Part shown: in pieces, positions 8,532 to 46,711 of the stretch | Numbering within the stretch: position 1 is the first letter of the stretch | How the letters are laid out: every line of letters begins with the position of its first letter | DNA from: Bacilli bacterium | GTDB taxonomy: Bacteria; Bacillota_I; Bacilli_A; RFN20; CAG-826 | DNA length: 61,030 nt | Reading direction: 5' to 3' | Assembly: GCA_017479485.1 (NCBI GenBank) | Contig: JAFVCC010000037.1 | Span: 1 to 61,030, forward strand | Made by a program: the position numbers and the translations under genes | The notes under the pieces: generated by a model | Told to the model about the DNA's origin: nothing | Seen by the model: the letters and a program-made list of their open reading frames with translations, nothing else | The model's database searches: none

Positions 8532-9121
8532 GTCATTCTAACGTCGAAGCGTTCTTCAATTCCGTCGCTTCCAAATGGGACGATTGGGCCAACGACGACA
8601 TGGACCGCGTCCGCGCGCTCTTCTCCCAGATCGGCATCAAGCCCGGCGATAAGGTTCTGGACCTCGCCTGTGGAACCGGAGTGGTGACGGAGCTGCTCCA
8701 TGAGTTTTCTCTCGCCCCCGTCCATGGGCTCGACATCGCCGAGAACATGATCGTCCGGGCCAAGGAAAAATATCAGGACAAGGATTATGCCTCCTTTGAG
8801 GTGGGCGATTTTATGTCTTATCCGGGAGAGAAGTATGATGCCATCGTCATCTATAACGCCTACCCTCATTTCCTCGATCCCAAAGCCCTCTCTTCTCGGC
8901 TCGCTGAAACTCTTAACATAGCGGGCAAATTCGCCATCGTTCATTCCTTGGGCCGGAAGCAACTTTCCGCACATCATGACCCCCTCGGTCCCAAGATCTC
9001 GCGCGACTTATTACCCGTTAGAGAAGAAGCGGAGTTCTTCAAAGAAGAATTTGAAGTTTTAAAGGCAGACGAAGGCGAAGATTTTTACCTCATTATTGGT
9101 GCCAAAAACGCCAACGTATAG
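8528..9121 (+). CDS. Class I SAM-dependent methyltransferase
   Basis: VLDLACGTG motif I; overlaps upstream stop. Confidence 0.85.
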   Translation: MSHSNVEAFFNSVASKWDDWANDDMDRVRALFSQIGIKPGDKVLDLACGTGVVTELLHEFSLAPVHGLDIAENMIVRAKEKYQDKDYASFEVGDFMSYPGEKYDAIVIYNAYPHFLDPKALSSRLAETLNIAGKFAIVHSLGRKQLSAHHDPLGPKISRDLLPVREEAEFFKEEFEVLKADEGEDFYLIIGAKNANV

Positions 9122-14282: not shown

Positions 14283-17200
14283 TTCTTTTGTTCCAGAATC
14301 CCGTTGGCTGGACCTCGAAGGCGACATCAAGCAGGACGTCTTGCGTTATTACCGCGACCTTTTTGCCCGTGGGGTGGTCCACGTTTATTATGCCTTTGGC
14401 CAAAACGGTCTTCGCTTTGAATGCTATTACGAGAACGACTATGGAAGATGCTTCTTTTCTCTCGCTGGCGAGCTAAAATGCGCTGCGACTTCGTTAAGCG
14501 TTGCTTTAGCGTTATTTATTCGTGACCAAGAAGCGCATGCCGATGAGCCTTGGCTGCGGCGCTTATATGGGGCGGACTATGACACCTTATCGACGCTTGC
14601 TTCTTTGGGGCCGGGCAAGGCCAAGGGATATTTCGAGGCGTCTCAGAAAATCGACGAATTGGCTTACCGCATTGGCAAACAAACAAAACTAGCGACGCGC
14701 CAAAAGCCCAAACTACGCTTCGTTTTAGACCTCGGCGGGACCAAGACCAGCGTCTCGCTTCGAATTGGCTTTACCAAGCTATACATCAACCGCAAAACCG
14801 TCGCCTTCTTGCGCGACTATTATTCCGGGAATGCTCTGACGATTCAGAAAGAACACGTTGTTCTTCCTGCGGAATCTTTCTCTCCAGAAATCGAAAAAGC
14901 GCTGCAATTCCTCTATAACTCCGTTGCCGGAAGCATGTACTATAGCGCGAATTATCCCGCTGTTTTAAACGAAGACAAAACGGTTCAATTCCTCCTTTTG
15001 CTCCAAGGAATGGAGGTTGACCTTAATGACCTTCCCTGCAAAATCTCTTCCATCCATAGAGTTGAGATGAAGCTGAAAGGGGATGGCTCGATCGATTCCT
15101 CACTGCCTTTGCGGGCGAAGGGGTTAAAGTGCTACGGCAAGTATGGCTATATCCTGACTCCAGGCTGCGTTGAGCTTTATGAGTTCCATTCCTCTGCTGC
15201 GGCGGAAGTCTATTCCTTTTTCTCAGCAAACAAGGGGCTTCATGGCGCCTTCCTCGCAGGCGAACTGGCAAAAAAGGTTTTGCCGTTACTCGACGAAGAG
15301 GACCTCTCCGTCGACGAGGAGTTTGCTCTAGCCCACCCCATTCGCCGACCGCACGTCGATTATTTTGTTTCTCTCGACCTTGAAGGCAACTTGCTCTTTG
15401 AAACGAAACTGTTCCTTGGCGAAGAAGAAATCGACGAAGACGCCTTCCGGGCCTTTAGCATGGAAACGGCACATCGCCTTGAGGATTTCCATGAGGAGTT
15501 ATCTCGTCTAGGCTTCCCCGCTTCGGGTATTCGGAAAGGGGACGAGAGCGTCGTGGCTTTCCTTTCCTCTGATTTCTCCAAGCTGCAGACCATCGCGAAT
15601 GTGTATGTCTGCGAGGAACTGCAAAATCGTTCCGTCAGCGCGTCCCCAAACATCAATATCAGCGCGAGTTCGGGAGAAGACTGGTTCTCGGTGGGCCTAT
15701 ATGCGTCGGGCTATACGGAGGAGGAACTACTCGCGATTTATTCCGCTTTCGTACGCAAAAAGAAATTCGTTCGCTTAAAGAACAATTATGTCCTGTTCGA
15801 CCAAAACAACGAAAGCCTCGTTGCTTTGTCCGAAAGCTTCGCGCCGGAGTTGATTGGGAAGCAGCTCCCCTTATATCAAGCCTTGAAGCTCCCTTCTTTA
15901 GGCGGCGATACGGATGATGCGATCAAGAAACTGATCCACGACGTTCAGGACTATGGTTCTTTGGAACTAGGCCCTTTGCCTAAGCCCATCCAAGAGTCCA
16001 TGCGCCCTTACCAACATAGTGGCATCCAGTTCCTCTTTAACCTGTATCGTCTTGGCCTATCCGGCATCCTTTCGGATGACATGGGCCTAGGAAAAACTCT
16101 GCAATCCTTTGGTTTTTTCTCGCTGATCGAGTCCGATCAACCCATCTTGGTGGTTTGCCCGAAGTCCTTGATTTATAACTGGCTTGAGGAGCGGAATAAG
16201 TGGGCCCCTGAGATGGAAGCCCATATCTTAGTCGGCTCACCCAAGGAGCGTCAGGAAATTTATGCGCGCATGCGAAAGCCGGGCAAGGCGGTCTACTTTG
16301 TATCCTATGATACGTTGCGTAACGATATCGACGAACTCGAAGGCGTCACCTTCAGTGCCATGGTACTCGATGAAGGCCAATACATTTCAAACGCCCATGC
16401 CTTGAAGACCCGCGCGGTGAAGCAAGTGGAAGCGGACTCCCGCTTCGTTTTGACGGGAACTCCGGTTCAGAATTCTTTGATGGATCTATGGTCTATCTTC
16501 GATTTCCTGCTCCCCGGTTATTTCCCACCCGTTTCCAAATTCAAAGAACTCTATGGCGCGCTGGCCTTTGATAGCGATGAAGCTCGGGCGAGGCTGCTGG
16601 TTAAGATCAAACCATTCTTGCTGGGCAGGAAGAAGAAGGATGTCTTGCAAGAACTTCCCGACAAGGAAAATGTCACGATGTCTTTGGGCATGAACGATGA
16701 CCAGCTCAAAGTCTATGAATCTTATTTGGCTAAGGCCCGATTGCTCGTCCATGAGGGAACGGGCGCACGTATGAACCTACTCGCCGCGTTGACAAGGCTC
16801 CGACAGATTTGCGTTTCGCCTTCACTCGTGCTTGAAGGGGAATATTCCTCGGCGAAAGTGGAGTATCTACTCGAAGCTCTAACTGGATTAAAACAATCCG
16901 GGCGTAAAGCCATCGTTTTCTCTAGCTTTGTCAGCGCGTTAGAACTCATCGGAAAAGCCTGCAAGAATGCTGGGATTAACCCCGAATATATTACGGGCGA
17001 TACCTCGGCAAAAGTTCGCGTCATTTTGGCGGACCGCTTCAACAAGCCCGACTCCAATATTGATGTGATGCTCGTCTCGTTAAAAGCGGGCGGCACCGGA
17101 TTAAACCTCATCGGCGCAGACACCGTATTCCATCTCGACCCCTGGTGGAACCTCGCCGCGGAACGCCAAGCGGAGGACCGCGCTTACCGTATCGGCCAAA

Positions 17201-35165: not shown

Positions 35166-35390
35166 ATGGCTTTCAAGAAGATGCATTCCCGTCGTAAAGT
35201 TTGCTACTTCACGAAGAACCACATCAAATACATCGATTATAAGGATGTGGAGCTCCTTCAGAGGTTCATCTCTCCCGACGGAAAAATCACCCCGCGTTCC
35301 GCGACCGGCACCAGCGCCAAGTATCAGCGCCAGCTCGCCGTTGCGATCAAAAACGCGCGTTTCATGGGTTTGCTTCCCGAAGTGAAGTAA
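35166..35390 (+). CDS. rpsR: 30S ribosomal protein S18
   Basis: [22 protein letters not shown]; [18 protein letters not shown]. Confidence 0.96.
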
Positions 35391-35407
35391 TCTCTCGCTT
35401 GTTGTCG
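35327..35407 (+). repeat. Copy 1 of 81-bp direct repeat (rpsR 3' end plus downstream site)
   Basis: 78/81 identical to 36336..36416. Confidence 0.95.
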
Positions 35408-35662
35408 TCACACAGAATCGATCGTCCCGTTTTGTACAGAATCGATCGTCCTGACGACGAAGCAACACCACATAGAAAATCGACCTGGCTAACCGCTGGG
35501 TCTTTTCTTTTCGCCCGGCCCCGGTCGTCACACGTCGCGCGGCATCGATTCGAGTGAGCGAAACATAGTCGTCGTCGATTCTGGGTCCCACGGGTTGAAT
35601 ATGGGCCTCGTCGGAGAGAACCGATTTCGTTTTTTTTGGAGAATTGTCGTCGTCATGGAACA
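35403..35662. mobile_element. Empty mini-element 1 (260 bp): L1 35403-35463, R1 35605-35662
   Basis: Starts TGTCGTCA, ends ATGGAACA; no ORF; contains terminator hairpin. Confidence 0.7.
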
Positions 35663-35820
35663 ATTTGCGTGTTAGGACGAGAGCAATTCTCCTCGCTGAA
35701 ACCCAGCTGATTACCCCCAATGCACATCGAGCAATTCATAAATAAGACCGAGCGGTATTTGATTGACGTGCCAGCGAGATAATTGTGATAACATTTGATC
35801 GATAAAGGAGAGCTTCGATA

Positions 35821-36117
35821 ATGAGAGAAGAACTATTGAAAGGCTTGACCGAGGAACAAATCGAGAAAATCAAAAACTGCAAAGGTCAAGAAGAGATTTT
35901 GAAGATCGCTAAAGAAGAAGGTGTTGAACTCACCGATGACCAATTAGAGGCTGTTTCTGGCGGATGTGGCTTTGTTCAACCCACCAATTGCCCAGGATGC
36001 CAATCCACCAATTTCATTACAGCGGATATCAATATGGATGGCAGTAGAGTGACATATTATTGCAATAACTGCCATCGCAAATTTGTCTCTGATTCTGACG
36101 GCCCAAGAATGCTTTAA
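35821..36117 (+). CDS. Nif11/NHLP-like leader-peptide precursor with Cys-rich core
   Basis: ELTDDQLEAVSGG double-glycine leader (48 aa); 50-aa core with CPGC and CNNC; RBS AAGGAG. Confidence 0.75.
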   Translation: MREELLKGLTEEQIEKIKNCKGQEEILKIAKEEGVELTDDQLEAVSGGCGFVQPTNCPGCQSTNFITADINMDGSRVTYYCNNCHRKFVSDSDGPRML

Positions 36118-36335
36118 TCAAAAAGCTCTTTATACGAATAATGCTGGCGTTGTTCGCCCGTTTTCGATGTTTCTTTATATTCTAGTATGCTCCATTCGCG
36201 AGGAGATGTAGTGTTAATTGCTTTTCTCTGTTAACGGAAATCGGTTGCGTCAGCTTGGCGCGGATCCTTTGCTGTAGGGATAATGAAAAATATAGAAAAC
36301 CCTGCAAATCCAATACAAAATTGTGTTGGGCGTCG

Positions 36336-36416
36336 GCGCCAACTCGCCGTTGCGATCAAAAATGCGCGTTTCTTGGGTTTGCTTCCCGAAGTGAAGTAAT
36401 CTCTCGCTTGTTGTCG
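36336..36416 (+). repeat. Copy 2 of rpsR 3' end plus downstream TCTCTCGCTTGT site
   Basis: Encodes [20 protein letters not shown]; differences CAG/CAA, AAC/AAT, ATG/TTG. Confidence 0.95.
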
Positions 36417-36747
36417 CAGGACGAACCCGATTCCCCGATTTAGGACAAACCGGATTCACCTCGACGACGAAGCAAAAAGCGAATTAGACCGTCCATCGTT
36501 GGGCGGTTTTTTCATGCTCGTTCGCCCCTCGTCCTGGATCTATTTGAAACCATCGACGTCGAAGCTGCTTTATATACTTGTATATAACTCGTTCTGGCTA
36601 GCCCCGGGCGTCCCACGTCGAGCAATCGTCCTTCTGGCTGGCAAATTGTTAGCCGTCGTCGAAATCGCGTCACATGGCTCGAATATGGGCTTCGTCGGAG
36701 AGAACGAACTTCGTACTTTGCAGGAGAATGGTCGTCGTCATGGGACA
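36412..36747. mobile_element. Empty mini-element 3 (336 bp): L3 36412-36473, R3 36689-36747
   Basis: TGTCGCAGGAC...GTCATGGGACA; internal terminator and palindromes. Confidence 0.75.
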
Positions 36748-36810
36748 TGTGTTGTGTCAGGACAAGAGCAATTCTCTCCAACGAGACGAAGCTGATTCTC
36801 CCCGAAGCAC

Positions 36811-36852
36811 GAAGCAACAAATCAACAGGACCGTCCATCGCTGGGTGGTTTT
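36811..36852 (+). repeat. Terminator-like repeat M2, copy upstream of antiporter
   Basis: GAAGCAACAAATCAACAGGACCGTCC (26 bp) identical to 38222..38247, then hairpin and T tract. Confidence 0.85.
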
Positions 36853-37005
36853 CTTATGTTTCTCCTCTTGCTAGTAGTATAATTGGCTCGGGAATGATGT
36901 CTCCCATCTAGAAATAGAGAACCGCAATGAAGTGCTGATGACGTCTATGACTTGTTTTGTCATAGAAATCAGCGCTTTTGTTTCTATGGCAGATGGGGGG
37001 TATCG

Positions 37006-38196
37006 ATGAATATATTTCTGTCTTTGTTTATTATTTTTGGTGGTGGGATCCTCGGTGGGTTTTTATTTGAGAAGATCAAACTCCCCAAACTGGTGTGGTA
37101 TATCATTCTCGGGATTCTTATTGGACCATCTTTGTTCAATATCGTTGATGAAACGTTGCTGTCGGTTTCGTCTCATCTAAGGCAAATCGCTTTGGTCATC
37201 ATATTGACCAGGTCAGGCCTATCTTTGGACATTAAGAACCTAAAGAAAATAGGGCGACCTGCGATATTGATGTGCTTTTTACCCGCTTGTTTTGAAATTG
37301 CGGGCATCACGATATTTGGCCCAATGCTCCTCGGGATATCCTATTTCGAAGCCTTGCTTCTTGGCTCGGTCTTGGCGGCCGTTTCGCCGGCGGTAGTGGT
37401 TCCGAGAATGATTCGCCTAATGGAAGAAGGATATGGAAAAGAACACTGCGTGCCCGAACTTGTGATGGCGGGGGCATCTTGTGACGACATCTTTGTAATC
37501 GTCCTTTTCTATTCGTTCAAGAATCTGGTCGCAACGTCCACCTTTGACGCTTGGAGCGTCGGGCAAATCCCCATTTCGATCGTCTCCGGTGTCATTTTGG
37601 GCATCGGAGTAGGCTTCTTGATGGTTTTAGCCATTCGATACATGAAACTAAATAGAATCGTCCATGTCATTTTGATGCTCGGTCTCTCCTTCGGGATGCT
37701 CGCCCTCGAGAATGCCTTGAAACCGTATTTCAGCGTTTCGTCTCTATTAGCCATCATCGTCATGGCATTTGTGGTGGGCGTCTTTAAAAAAGAGGAAGCG
37801 AAGGAGATGCAGAAATCCTATAACGGCTTATGGCAAGGTTTTGAAATCCTATTGTTCGCTCTCGTTGGCATTGCGGTCGATGTTCGTTACGCTTTTTCAA
37901 AAGAAGGGGCAATCATCGTTGGGCTGGTTTTCATTGCGTTGGTATTTAGAAGTTTAGGCGTGTTTTGCAGCATAATTGCAACGAAATTCACTTGGAAAGA
38001 AAAACTATATATCGTCATTTCTTATCTCCCTAAGGCGACCGTTCAAGCATCGATTGGGGCGATTGCTTTGTCCGAAGGCCTTGCTTGCGGCACGTTGGTG
38101 CTGACCGCTGCGGTGGTGGCAATATTGATAACCGCTCCATTGGGTGCGATATTGATGGATAACCTGAAAAACAAATTGCTTAAGAGGGAGGCGTAG
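37006..38196 (+). CDS. Cation:proton antiporter (CPA1/NhaP-like)
   Basis: About 12 TM; LGILIGP, ILTRSGL, AAVSPAVVVP, GASCDD, PKATVQA; start set at MNIFLS. Confidence 0.85.
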   Translation: MNIFLSLFIIFGGGILGGFLFEKIKLPKLVWYIILGILIGPSLFNIVDETLLSVSSHLRQIALVIILTRSGLSLDIKNLKKIGRPAILMCFLPACFEIAGITIFGPMLLGISYFEALLLGSVLAAVSPAVVVPRMIRLMEEGYGKEHCVPELVMAGASCDDIFVIVLFYSFKNLVATSTFDAWSVGQIPISIVSGVILGIGVGFLMVLAIRYMKLNRIVHVILMLGLSFGMLALENALKPYFSVSSLLAIIVMAFVVGVFKKEEAKEMQKSYNGLWQGFEILLFALVGIAVDVRYAFSKEGAIIVGLVFIALVFRSLGVFCSIIATKFTWKEKLYIVISYLPKATVQASIGAIALSEGLACGTLVLTAAVVAILITAPLGAILMDNLKNKLLKREA

Positions 38197-38221
38197 TGAA
38201 CTTCGACTCTTTTATAGGCAA

Positions 38222-38265
38222 GAAGCAACAAATCAACAGGACCGTCCGTTTTTGAGCGGTTTTTT
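38222..38265 (+). repeat. Terminator-like repeat M2, copy downstream of antiporter
   Basis: 26-bp identity with 36811..36836. Confidence 0.85.
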
Positions 38266-38656
38266 CATGTCCGTCCCTCGTCTCGGACCTATTAGGAACC
38301 ATCGACGTCGAAGCTACTTTATATATTTGTATATAACGCGTTCTGGCTAGCCCCGGTCGGTCCACGTCGCGCGATCGTCCTTGTGGCTGGCAAATTGTTA
38401 GGCGTCGTCCGAATCGCGTCCTATGGCTCGAATATGGGCTTCGTCGGAGAGAGCGAAGTTCGTCCTTTCGGAGAGAATGGGCGTCGTCATGGGACACTTG
38501 TTGTCGCAGGACGAACCCGATTCCCCGATTTAGGACAAACCGGATTCACCCCGACGACGAAGCAACCCAGTCACTCGGCATCGGGAAAGAAGTCCACGGA
38601 TCGTGGCAACTCAAATTGAGATTAAGCCGTCCTTAATAATTGGGCGGTTTTCTCTT

Positions 38657-41277: not shown

Positions 41278-41565
41278 GGTGGGGTGCTCTTTGGTCGCTT
41301 CATTATACCTTATCAACGGAACAAGATAGAGCTTAGTCGGAGAGAGCGAAGTTCGTCCTTTCGGAGAGAATAGGCGTCGCCATGGGACAGTTGTTGTTGT
41401 GCCAGGACGAGAACAATTCTCCAAGATAATACGAAGAACGTTCTCCCCGAGACACGAAGCAAAAGCGAATTAGACCGTCCCTCTGAGCGGCTTTTTATGC
41501 TTTGGATATGTGGATTATCAATCACAAATCGAAGATAATTAACATGGTTAAGGAGGCTAAATAAA

Positions 41566-42555
41566 ATGAAAAACGAAATACTGATTTATAACCTTCCTGA
41601 TGGCGGGTCCAATGTCGAAGTGTACCTAAACGAAGACGATATTTGGATGACTCAATTAAGCTTGGCCGATATGTTTCAAACGTCAAAAGCCAACATTACG
41701 ATGCATATCCAAAACATATATAAAGAGGGCGAACTTCAGGAAGATCGAACTAGTAAGTGGGGCTTACTACTTCGAGACGAGGGAACGAGGGCCGTAAGAA
41801 GAAAAACCAAACTCTATAATCTCAAAATGATTATTGCGATTGGCTTCCGCACCAAAAGTTCCACCGCGACCGCCTTTCGCGTTTGGGCGAATAATATCCT
41901 CCAACAATACATGGTAAAGGGTTTTGCCATCGATGATAAACGTCTTGAGGACCCAACGAAGTTCGGAAGAGATTATTTTGATGAACTCTATCTTAGAATC
42001 AGGGCAATCCGCGCATCGGAAAAACGTTTTTACCAGAAAGTCTTGGATATTTATTCAACAAGCGTTGATTACAACAAAAACGATGAGCAGACCCTGCTCT
42101 TCTTCAAAACCGTCCAAAACAAATTACATTACGCTATTTCAGGCGAGACGGCGGCGGAACTCATTTATCATCGGGCAGATGCCTCAAAGGATAACATGGG
42201 TTTAACGACTTGGTGGGGCGAGCACGTTCAAAAAAGTGACGTGACGATTGCCAAAAACTATTTGTCCCAAGAAGAAATAGACTCATTGAACCAAATCGTG
42301 AACATGTATTTGGATCATGCGGAAAGAATGGCTCAGTCCAATATCCCGATGCACATGAGCGATTGGATTAACGTCCTGGACGAATTCTTGAAGTTCGAAC
42401 GCGCGGATATTCTTGTGGGGGCTGGGAAAATCTCCCATGCACTAGCGGAACAAAAAGCTCATAAGGAATATGAGAAGTTCGATGCTTCTCGCCAAATTGC
42501 GATGACAGCAAACCTTGATAAAGACCTTTTGGACGTCCTTAAGAAAAAGAAATAA
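41566..42555 (+). CDS. RhuM-family (virulence RhuM) DNA-binding protein
   Basis: IWMTQLSLADMF, IIAIGFR, FRVWA, YMVKGFAIDD, FFKTVQNKLHYA, IAKNYL. Confidence 0.85.
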   Translation: MKNEILIYNLPDGGSNVEVYLNEDDIWMTQLSLADMFQTSKANITMHIQNIYKEGELQEDRTSKWGLLLRDEGTRAVRRKTKLYNLKMIIAIGFRTKSSTATAFRVWANNILQQYMVKGFAIDDKRLEDPTKFGRDYFDELYLRIRAIRASEKRFYQKVLDIYSTSVDYNKNDEQTLLFFKTVQNKLHYAISGETAAELIYHRADASKDNMGLTTWWGEHVQKSDVTIAKNYLSQEEIDSLNQIVNMYLDHAERMAQSNIPMHMSDWINVLDEFLKFERADILVGAGKISHALAEQKAHKEYEKFDASRQIAMTANLDKDLLDVLKKKK

Positions 42556-42560
42556 TCACT

Positions 42561-43259
42561 ATGGATAAGAGAGAGTTAGGGCAAAGACTCAGAGCAATTC
42601 GAAAAAGGAGGGGTTACTCTCAACAGACACTCGCCGAAATGATGGGCTATAAAGATCGTTCCACGCTGGCAAAGGTAGAAAACGGCATAAACGACATAAC
42701 CATTGAAACTTTATATCGATACGCGGATGTTTTAGAAACTGACGTGGAAGAACTTCTCGGGATTAAGAAATCCAGAAAGATAATCCAGAATTGCAAGGTT
42801 TTTAGCTTTGAAACAGAAAAGATTAAAGTAGCGATTCGCGAAATCGAAAAGAAGGATTACCCTGCTGTGGCCTTTATCTGGCGCGAGGTTTTAGATGTTC
42901 CTACAACGGATGATGATTTGAAGAAAACCTATGAGAAGATGAGAGGTGATGACCGTTATCATACGCTGATTGCCGAAGTTGACGGAGAAGCAGTGGGGCT
43001 GGTGACGACGGTATTTAGTTACGCGGTCGGCCATCCCAACGGATATGTCAAAATCAACGGCCTTGGAGTGCGGCAAGAGTATCGACGCAAAGGAATCGGG
43101 AAAGCGTTGCTCGAGGCCGCGGAGCGGGTTGCTATCGACAGCGGCGCCCCATATATCGCTCTTGCGTCTGGCTTTGCTCGCGAAGAGGCACATGCTTTTT
43201 ATGAGGACAGCGGATATCAAAAGACGTCCTATTGGTTTAGAAAGAGATTAAATAAATAA
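42561..43259 (+). CDS. XRE HTH fused to GNAT acetyltransferase
   Basis: SQQTLAEMMGYKDRSTLAKVE; RRKGIGKALL acetyl-CoA motif. Confidence 0.85.
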   Translation: MDKRELGQRLRAIRKRRGYSQQTLAEMMGYKDRSTLAKVENGINDITIETLYRYADVLETDVEELLGIKKSRKIIQNCKVFSFETEKIKVAIREIEKKDYPAVAFIWREVLDVPTTDDDLKKTYEKMRGDDRYHTLIAEVDGEAVGLVTTVFSYAVGHPNGYVKINGLGVRQEYRRKGIGKALLEAAERVAIDSGAPYIALASGFAREEAHAFYEDSGYQKTSYWFRKRLNK

Positions 43260-43469
43260 TCGGCCGCGTCGGGCGATATCGATTCAAGCGAGTGAATTAT
43301 AGCATCTGTCGATTCTGGGCCACACGGGTCGAACATGGGCCCCGTCGGAGAGAGCGGAGTTTGTTCTTTTTCCGAAGAATTGGCGTCGTCATGGGAAATC
43401 TGTAAATAGTCGCTAATATATTATCAAATAACATTGGATATATAGGTAAAAATGCTAAAATATTAGCGT

Positions 43470-46622: not shown

Positions 46623-46711
46623 TTAGCAAACCAATGGCTCGAATATGGGCCTCATCGGAGAGAACAGAGTCTGTTCTTTTTCTGAGAATCGGCGTCGTCA
46701 TGGAACATATT

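Follow-up and report, generated by a model that had tools for sequence, protein, structure and literature searches.

The window, by which we mean the whole stretch of 61,030 nucleotides analyzed here, carries the genes rpsF, ssb, and rpsR in that order (as read from its list of open reading frames), and directly downstream of rpsR lies a stack of DNA units bounded by repeated left and right ends. Six left ends start at 35403, 35668, 36412, 36753, 38502, and 41398, and six right ends finish at 35662, 36747, 38496, 41389, 43398, and 46707, each class in a single orientation throughout. The labels used in an earlier note on this DNA (R1 to R7) imply seven right ends, but six were found in the window. 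The features of the stack are as follows.

35166..35390, plus strand: rpsR, encoding ribosomal protein S18, the attachment gene; the first insertion lies 12 nt past its stop codon
35398..35402: target 5-mer CTTGT before the first left end, also present at 36407-36411 and 38497-38501
35403..35464, plus strand: left end of unit 1, with the variant site type CACAGAATCGATCGTCC / TACAGAATCGATCGTCC
35593..35662, minus strand: right end of unit 1 (76.7 bits with the end model)
35668..35729, plus strand: left end with a mutated terminus (CGT for TGT) and without a matching right end nearby
36412..36747, plus strand: empty 336-bp unit consisting of left end, terminator, arm of ~170 bp with the palindrome TTATATAC-TT-GTATATAA, and right end
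36753..36814, plus strand: left end of the unit carrying a fluoride riboswitch and an antiporter-like gene
38427..38496, minus strand: right end R4 (85.2 bits), given as 38438-38496 in the earlier note
38497..38501: 5-bp spacer CTTGT between R4 and L5, the same letters as the 5-mer behind rpsR
38502..38563, plus strand: left end L5 of the ABC-2 transporter unit, 99% identical to 36407-36475 (family D12)
41320..41389, minus strand: right end of the ABC-2 unit
41398..41459, plus strand: left end of the RhuM / HTH-GNAT unit, following an 8-bp spacer
43329..43398, minus strand: right end with a TTT terminus in place of TGT
46638..46707, minus strand: last right end of the stack; the DNA beyond it is homologous to the sequence directly behind rpsR in the sister genome G051 (L018)

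The final 74 nt of rpsR, together with the flank, recur as a second, noncoding, 95% identical copy at positions 36333-36406, inside the stack and immediately before the left end at 36412. Elsewhere in the source genome, the ends were found only in one array piece on contig C21 (12975-15962). This second piece lies in reverse orientation, has a left-CTTAG-right junction at 14407/14413, and carries nucleotidyltransferase-like and AbiE-like genes; its last gene is cut at the contig end by the start of an IS1595-like zinc-ribbon transposase.

Right end R4 (minus strand, terminus at 38496) and left end L5 (terminus at 38502) converge within 38438-38563, with CTTGT (38497-38501) between them. Read on the minus strand, 38438-38496 gives TGTCCCAT GACGACGCCCATTCTCTCCGAAAG GACGAACTTCGCTCTCTCC GACGAAGC for R4, and 38502-38563 gives TGTCGCAG GACGAACCCGATTCCCCGATTTAG GACAAACCGGATTCACCCC GACGACGAAGC for L5, coordinates and letters that agree with the earlier note. 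Both ends follow the same order: an 8-bp terminus beginning TGT, a 24-bp block starting with GACGA, a 19-bp block starting with GAC(G/A)A, and GACGA again. The earlier note had placed repeated sites at positions 9, 33, and 52. In a position-weight scan, each end contained two strong sites, 17- to 19-bp direct repeats at offsets 9 and 33 that score 18 to 22 bits apiece, and the main site type is GACGA-N5-ATTCTCC. The third position did not hold up as a site: nothing at offset 52 exceeded the threshold of the scan, left ends having there only a GACGA half-site (common letters GA(A/C)G(A/C)ACGAAGC) and right ends a different, well-conserved block, GACGAAGCCCATATTCGA. Chance is ruled out as the source of the pattern, because TGT-N5-GACGA is found at 10 places in the window where 1.84 would be expected, and the full grammar, searched for with at most three mismatches, at 8 places where 0.01 would be expected. 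The spacing to which the note had drawn attention persisted as further copies were added: 27 distinct ends from nine genomes gave a 66-column alignment with zero gaps, and the grammar was kept without gaps among all 84 distinct ends collected, from more than 60 loci.

The ends coincide with the boundaries of insertions. In genome G046 the site behind rpsR is empty and reads TAA TCTTGAT GGGGC AGATGTGAC (empty-site sequence, TCTTGATGGGGCAGATGTGAC), and in its relative G049 the same place is filled (GGGGC, 336 bp, GGGGC), a unit running from TGT to ACA lying between the two GGGGC copies and being followed by the same downstream sequence as in G046. The two genomes differ here by exactly one 336-bp unit and a 5-bp duplication. 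Perfect 5-bp duplications flank 7 of 49 distinct left-to-right units, against ~0.05 expected, and in six further units of the 49 the flanking 5-mers match at four of five positions (~0.8 expected). Matching 5-mers also enclose composite units, ACAAA in genome G009 and CTTGT on either side of 36412..38496 in the window, and right-to-left junctions are exactly 5 bp long in 20 of 28 cases. The duplicated 5-mer varies by host (GGGGC, CCCGC, GCTAA, TTATA, ACAAA, and others). Of 37 distinct occupied loci, 36 have the left end 11 to 14 nt past the rpsR stop codon, and in all 37 it is the rpsR-proximal end. Such boundaries are those of transposition with a 5-bp stagger whose position is set by the distance from a recognized sequence. 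A fixed insertion point combined with a variable 5-mer makes it probable that the conserved 3′ end of rpsR is read by a TniQ/TnsD-type selector, much as TnsD reads glmS for Tn7.

The same observations bear on two readings in which no transposase takes part. A right end, its spacer, and the following left end might together form a recombination site of the integron attC or dif kind, at which cassettes are exchanged by a site-specific recombinase. The junction does resemble inverted binding arms around a short spacer, and the cassettes do lie in one orientation behind a fixed gene, but the flanking 5 bp are a host-derived, variable duplication present as a single copy in the empty site, where the core of a recombinase site would be constant, and no integrase gene was found in or adjoining the arrays examined; we regard this explanation as highly improbable. 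Alternatively, the repeats could be immobile host regulatory or REP-like intergenic sequences bound by a host protein, a suggestion favored by their intergenic position near terminators. Against it, the repeats are confined to the rpsR flank and the one contig C21 piece, they bound presence/absence differences exactly, and 33 of the 58 genomes of the genus have none, so that this reading, too, can be given hardly any credence.

In loci of several relatives (L024, L025, L004, L006, and others), rpsR or the last right end is immediately followed by a conserved native stretch of ~100 nt, TTCTCAGGCTCTCGTCCCCATCCCGTTTGGGGCAAGGAATCGTAACCTGGGCACAACGG, and then by a clean terminator; this stretch resembles a leader or small RNA belonging to the operon downstream. 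A supposed second family of ends starting TGTTCTCAG was rejected, as it proved to be native sequence downstream of rpsR.

Transposition by a staggered cut raises the question of the class of enzyme involved, and here the layout of the ends can be compared with known systems. Both ends of the Tn7 element on plasmid R721 start with TGTGGGCG, followed by GACAA at position 9; its sites lie at 9/73/129 in one end and 9/50/70 in the other, and it is flanked by the 5-bp duplication GTGCG. The general layout that the earlier note gave for Tn7 ends, an 8-bp terminus followed by repeated sites, is thus visible in this element. In the Tn402-type end IRi, whose sequence matched more than 5000 plasmid records at 100%, TGTCGTTT is followed by TCAGAAGACGGCTGCAC at position 9 and TCAGAAGCCGACTGCAC at position 32. 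The units in the window share with Tn7 the 8-bp TGT terminus, a first site at position 9 with GAC(A/G)A, and several direct repeats per end, and they share with Tn5053/Tn402 an 8-bp TGT terminus followed by direct repeats of ~17 bp, at 9 and 32 in IRi and at 9 and 33 in the window. The layout in the window, an 8-bp terminus with sites at 9 and 33, is of the same design as that of Tn7/Tn402 and closest to the Tn402 pattern. It differs from that of Tn7 in the number of sites, Tn7 having three spaced and four packed sites, whereas the window units have two per end with equal spacing on both sides. Arrays of TnsB sites have been used to locate transposon boundaries (PMC8649781), and the TnsB-site motifs in part of Table S1 of that study include none like ATTCTCC or GACGA. 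Use of rpsR as an attachment or homing site was not found in the literature searched.

No transposase, TniB, or TniQ gene was found in the window, in its 62%-complete genome, or in any array examined. Among ~70 scanned open reading frames of the arrays, the only transposition genes belonged to unrelated ISL3 and IS1182 inserts and to the IS1595-like insert on contig C21, and Tn7 TnsA-E gave no match to six-frame translations of all DNA collected up to that stage. In a profile search, TniQ was absent from 201 genomes of the family, and this absence is informative because, in a control, Tn7 TnsD matched the TniQ profile at 5e-23. Searches with the Mu-transpos_C and DDE_2 profiles, which had no positive control, gave no match, and integrase-core (rve) matches in the source genome and 63 relatives were limited to IS3 and IS21 elements with unrelated ends. 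In the corresponding control, however, Tn7 TnsB (from plasmid R721, L233, 21447-23555) matched no Pfam family and gave only a 1e-4 match to an IS481 model (NCBIfam); two newer families that cover Tn7 TnsB, PF27135 and PF27165, lie outside the Pfam copy searched. Because the profile library misses Tn7 TnsB, the negative outcomes with rve, Mu-transpos_C, and DDE_2 say nothing about TnsB. A TnsB profile built from 25 homologues did detect two decayed TnsB-like genes in the genus, in the sister genomes G051 and G044. The copy in G051, the closest relative of the source genome, is a 178-aa fragment that reaches only the region of the first catalytic aspartate (MLDSTACDIYLVND), and the copy in G044 is frameshifted.

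The insertion sequences recovered in these searches offer a further candidate, namely, that IS3- or IS21-family elements of the genus, where they are common, gave rise to the units as miniature derivatives and move them with their transposases. Integrase-core genes do occur in many genomes of the genus, and IS21-type ends also contain several direct repeats. Their termini and repeats are nevertheless unrelated to those described here, the IS21 copy examined duplicates 8 bp, and the end model finds no end beside any such insertion sequence. Moreover, the ends do not track rve, 12 end-positive genomes having no rve match at all, and insertion sequences as a class do not home to a single place in a single orientation. 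An origin from IS3 or IS21 elements is therefore very improbable.

With the TnsB fragment set in a full-length frame to satisfy length filters, a search for relatives returned 731 proteins, the best of them 73 to 81% identical, 585 to 592 aa long, and carrying a precomputed HTH_TnsB domain. Most contigs with intact TnsB relatives, which come from gut Bacilli, encode in order a 114-aa open reading frame, TnsB/TniA, TniB, and TniQ; a serine resolvase usually lies no more than a few kilobases away. In L249 and L250 the TnsB gene is followed by neither TniB nor TniQ, and L257 has a short TniB, with no TniQ or resolvase called. Wherever the upstream DNA could be read, the operon was directly preceded by a left-arm-right unit or by its right end: the complete unit is visible in L245, L246, L251, and L255, and the right end and junction alone in L252, L253, and L256. 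Such a unit opens with a left end of the 8+24 grammar, continues through a terminator and an arm that contains a TTTATATA...TATATAA palindrome, and closes with an inverted right end, which finishes in ...ACA (...TCA in L251) and is followed by TATTG (TAGTG in L245). The operons are inserted at the 3′ end of tRNA-Ala genes (L245, L246, L251) and in the neighborhood of polA (L255, L256), and because the unit-operon junction is shared at such unrelated insertion sites, unit and operon travel together. At the tRNA-Ala site of L245, positions 8575-8605, just inside the left end, hold an inverted partial copy of the 3′ half of the tRNA (GGTCCGAACCGCCGACCTCCTCGTTGCGAAC).

The units before the operons are related to those in the window. 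The left end beside the TnsB-TniB-TniQ operon of L246 matches the left-end model derived from the window (E = 8e-8), and it is ~85% identical over 120 nt to window positions 35403-35520, the terminator behind it included. Site sequences differ among the operon elements (CACAAACTCGTTTATCC, CCCAACCCCATTTATCC, TCTAATTTCAATTATTCTC), with left and right sites similar within each, as would be expected for co-evolving pairs of transposase and site. Among the contigs examined, no operon lies beside the main site type, the accompanying units having other site sequences. The region upstream of the operon contains its own three to four direct repeats, AAAAGGGAAGATT, which could be the true sites of that transposase. 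Repeat and pattern searches did not find a far right end of the autonomous element, and for this reason the grammar-type left end is not proven to be the operon's own end.

The conserved arm of ~170 bp deserves separate mention. The perfect palindrome TTATATAC-TT-GTATATAA lies centrally in it, at 36563-36582 in the window and at the equivalent place in other units, and recurs at 9322-9343 of L251, in the unit before a TnsB-TniB-TniQ-resolvase operon; it may serve as the crossover site of the resolvase. Within the right ends of operon-associated units there is a motif, CGACATAAT, of which an inverted copy lies next to the start of the resolvase gene. A structured RNA in the arm was rejected (consensus fold energy of ~0, no covariation), as was an RNA guide (no shared word of at least 9 nt with the rpsR end beyond chance). 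With neither a conserved RNA fold nor a match to the rpsR end to explain it, the arm may be the res site of the resolvase, a role at which the palindrome and the CGACATAAT motif also hint.

These operons suggest a source of the enzyme, but the ends might instead belong to an unrecognized transposase or host enzyme, the neighborhood with TnsB-TniB-TniQ operons reflecting two element families that coincide at safe sites. None of the 30 end-positive genomes examined contains a cognate enzyme, the repeats upstream of the operons differ in sequence from the sites in the ends, and the main site type is without an adjacent operon, all of which would fit such an arrangement. Coincidence does not readily account for a left-arm-right unit joined to the operon by the same ...CA-TATTG at unrelated sites, the 3′ end of a tRNA gene and the neighborhood of polA; in addition, enzymes of the TnsB/TniA/MuA type are recognized by just this combination of 5-bp duplication, TGT/ACA termini, and sites that start at position 9, and TnsB-like relics are present in the genus. 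We consider an unrecognized enzyme unlikely. In our preferred interpretation, to which we attach considerable confidence, a family of nonautonomous DNA transposons has the 8+24+19 repeats as its cis-acting ends, and these most likely contain sites for a TnsB/TniA-family DDE transposase. The earlier note had already proposed such sites. What stands of that proposal is the end design of Tn7/Tn402 (5-bp duplication, site and orientation specificity, and layout), while the gene for the enzyme is absent from window, genome, and arrays. The connection of TnsB/TniA with these particular sites is a strong inference rather than a demonstration, because the searches found no far right end, the operons have AAAAGGGAAGATT repeats of their own, and none of those examined adjoins the main site type.

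Beyond the ends themselves, the units resemble Tn7 in their 5-bp duplication, in the set distance and single orientation with which they insert behind an essential, conserved gene, and in their accessory and defense cargo. They differ from Tn7 in lacking transposition genes, and no TnsA was seen in the related operons. With Tn5053/Tn402, the autonomous relatives share the set of TniA-like protein, TniB, TniQ, and serine resolvase, and the 5-bp duplication is again held in common. Tn5053/Tn402 elements seek out the res sites of plasmids and transposons, whereas the elements in the window lie at the 3′ flank of rpsR and their autonomous relatives at tRNA 3′ flanks, and the window units lack all tni genes. 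A further difference concerns repeated insertion. Stacks hold up to six like units, which suggests that immunity against a target already occupied by these ends is weak or bypassed; such stacking of like ends is not easily reconciled with the strong target immunity that Tn7 and Tn6022 show against an occupied site (PMC11014353).

Ends of this type are present in 25 of the 58 genomes of the genus, in five genomes from four other genera of the family, and in ~45 metagenome contigs. The hosts are uncultured Bacilli known from metagenome-assembled genomes (MAGs) of rumen and gut, ruminant and human, and no copy was found in the plasmid, phage, and viral collections searched. Several observations speak of mobility. 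Contigs of near-identical strains in sheep-gut metagenomes lack exactly one unit, their sequence jumping from 41372 to 43382. The empty unit at 36412..36747 is 80 to 88% identical to copies in other species, 336-bp units remain ~81% identical even between hosts whose rpsR identity is only 60 to 75%, and the divergence of the elements is weakly related to that of their hosts (r = 0.37). Empty backbones, 327 to 345 bp long and without coding capacity, make up 24 of the 49 units. Like miniature inverted-repeat transposable elements (MITEs), the 336-bp units are noncoding, end in inverted termini, are flanked by a target duplication, and outnumber any autonomous copy; unlike them, the rpsR units are tied to one site and one orientation, are often loaded with cargo, and lie head to tail in stacks instead of being dispersed.

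As cargo, the units of the window carry a Nif11-type peptide, an ABC-2 transporter, RhuM with an HTH-GNAT protein, HipBA, an ORF6N protein, and a fluoride riboswitch with an antiporter-like gene, and arrays elsewhere carry TIR, Cas4-like, and AbiE proteins. The riboswitch, at 36881-36954 (Rfam RF01734, 37.4 bits, E = 2e-7), immediately precedes a 414-aa gene of the Na/H-exchanger family (36952-38196) that recurs in 14 loci, and the commonest cargo of the units is therefore probably a fluoride-resistance module. Across the antiporter unit (36755-38558), summed contig depth was three to five times that of the flanks in two sheep-gut metagenomes (runs X5 and X6), which suggests that the same antiporter cassette is present in several organisms or strains of both samples. 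The same Nif11-type leader peptide with a cysteine-rich core is encoded both at 35821-36117 in the window and at 12207-12497 of L047, an rpsR stack in a genome of another, low-GC genus (G292), so that different genera share cargo.

Taken together, the preferred interpretation would run as follows. The 8-bp TGT terminus would be the point of cleavage and joining, and the two direct sites of ~17 to 19 bp, 24 bp apart, would most likely be bound by a TnsB/TniA-family DDE transposase. Insertion proceeds by a 5-bp staggered cut, the duplicated 5-mer being whatever the host has at the insertion point, which a TniQ/TnsD-type selector would choose. The units of the window, both empty 336-bp backbones and carriers of cargo, would be moved in trans, with relatives that encode the 114-aa protein, TnsB/TniA, TniB, TniQ, and serine resolvase as the likely helpers. 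Given that a left-arm-right unit precedes the operon and moves with it, the left end and near right end of autonomous relatives could be mobilized on their own; the abundance of empty units and the existence of stacks would then be accounted for.

The arrays invite comparison with those of integrons, in which accessory cassettes that are unidirectional and promoter-poor likewise accumulate behind a fixed point and vary in content between strains. The rpsR arrays differ in being built by transposition with target duplication rather than by attC x attI recombination, in having no integrase, and in that a unit may hold several genes on either strand. We tentatively suggest, as a possibility less likely than not, that they represent a transposition-built counterpart of the integron: a detachable left-res-right module of TniA-TniB-TniQ-resolvase elements, situated at their attachment-site end, may have given rise to the empty 336-bp vector and this in turn to cargo-loaded rpsR stacks exchanged between species. 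The hosts would be gut Bacilli with reduced genomes, mostly cells that no longer hold the transposase, and the cargo would include fluoride resistance, toxin-antitoxin pairs, defense genes, and transporters.

The end grammar is ordinary for the Tn7/Tn402 superfamily. What sets the system apart from those of the Tn7/Tn5053 kind is its homing to rpsR, the stacking of cassettes without a transposase, and the detachable left-arm-right module on autonomous relatives. MAG surveys can miss a helper element, and the standard profile libraries used here did not detect even the TnsB of Tn7. In gut Bacilli, units that are almost always transposase-less and often empty form cassette-like stacks and spread between species. 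With exact termini, a two-site layout, and a candidate tniA-tniB-tniQ-resolvase partner, the system is testable, and if the helper operon moves a mini-element to the 3′ end of rpsR, a compact site-specific insertion tool for Firmicutes may be possible.
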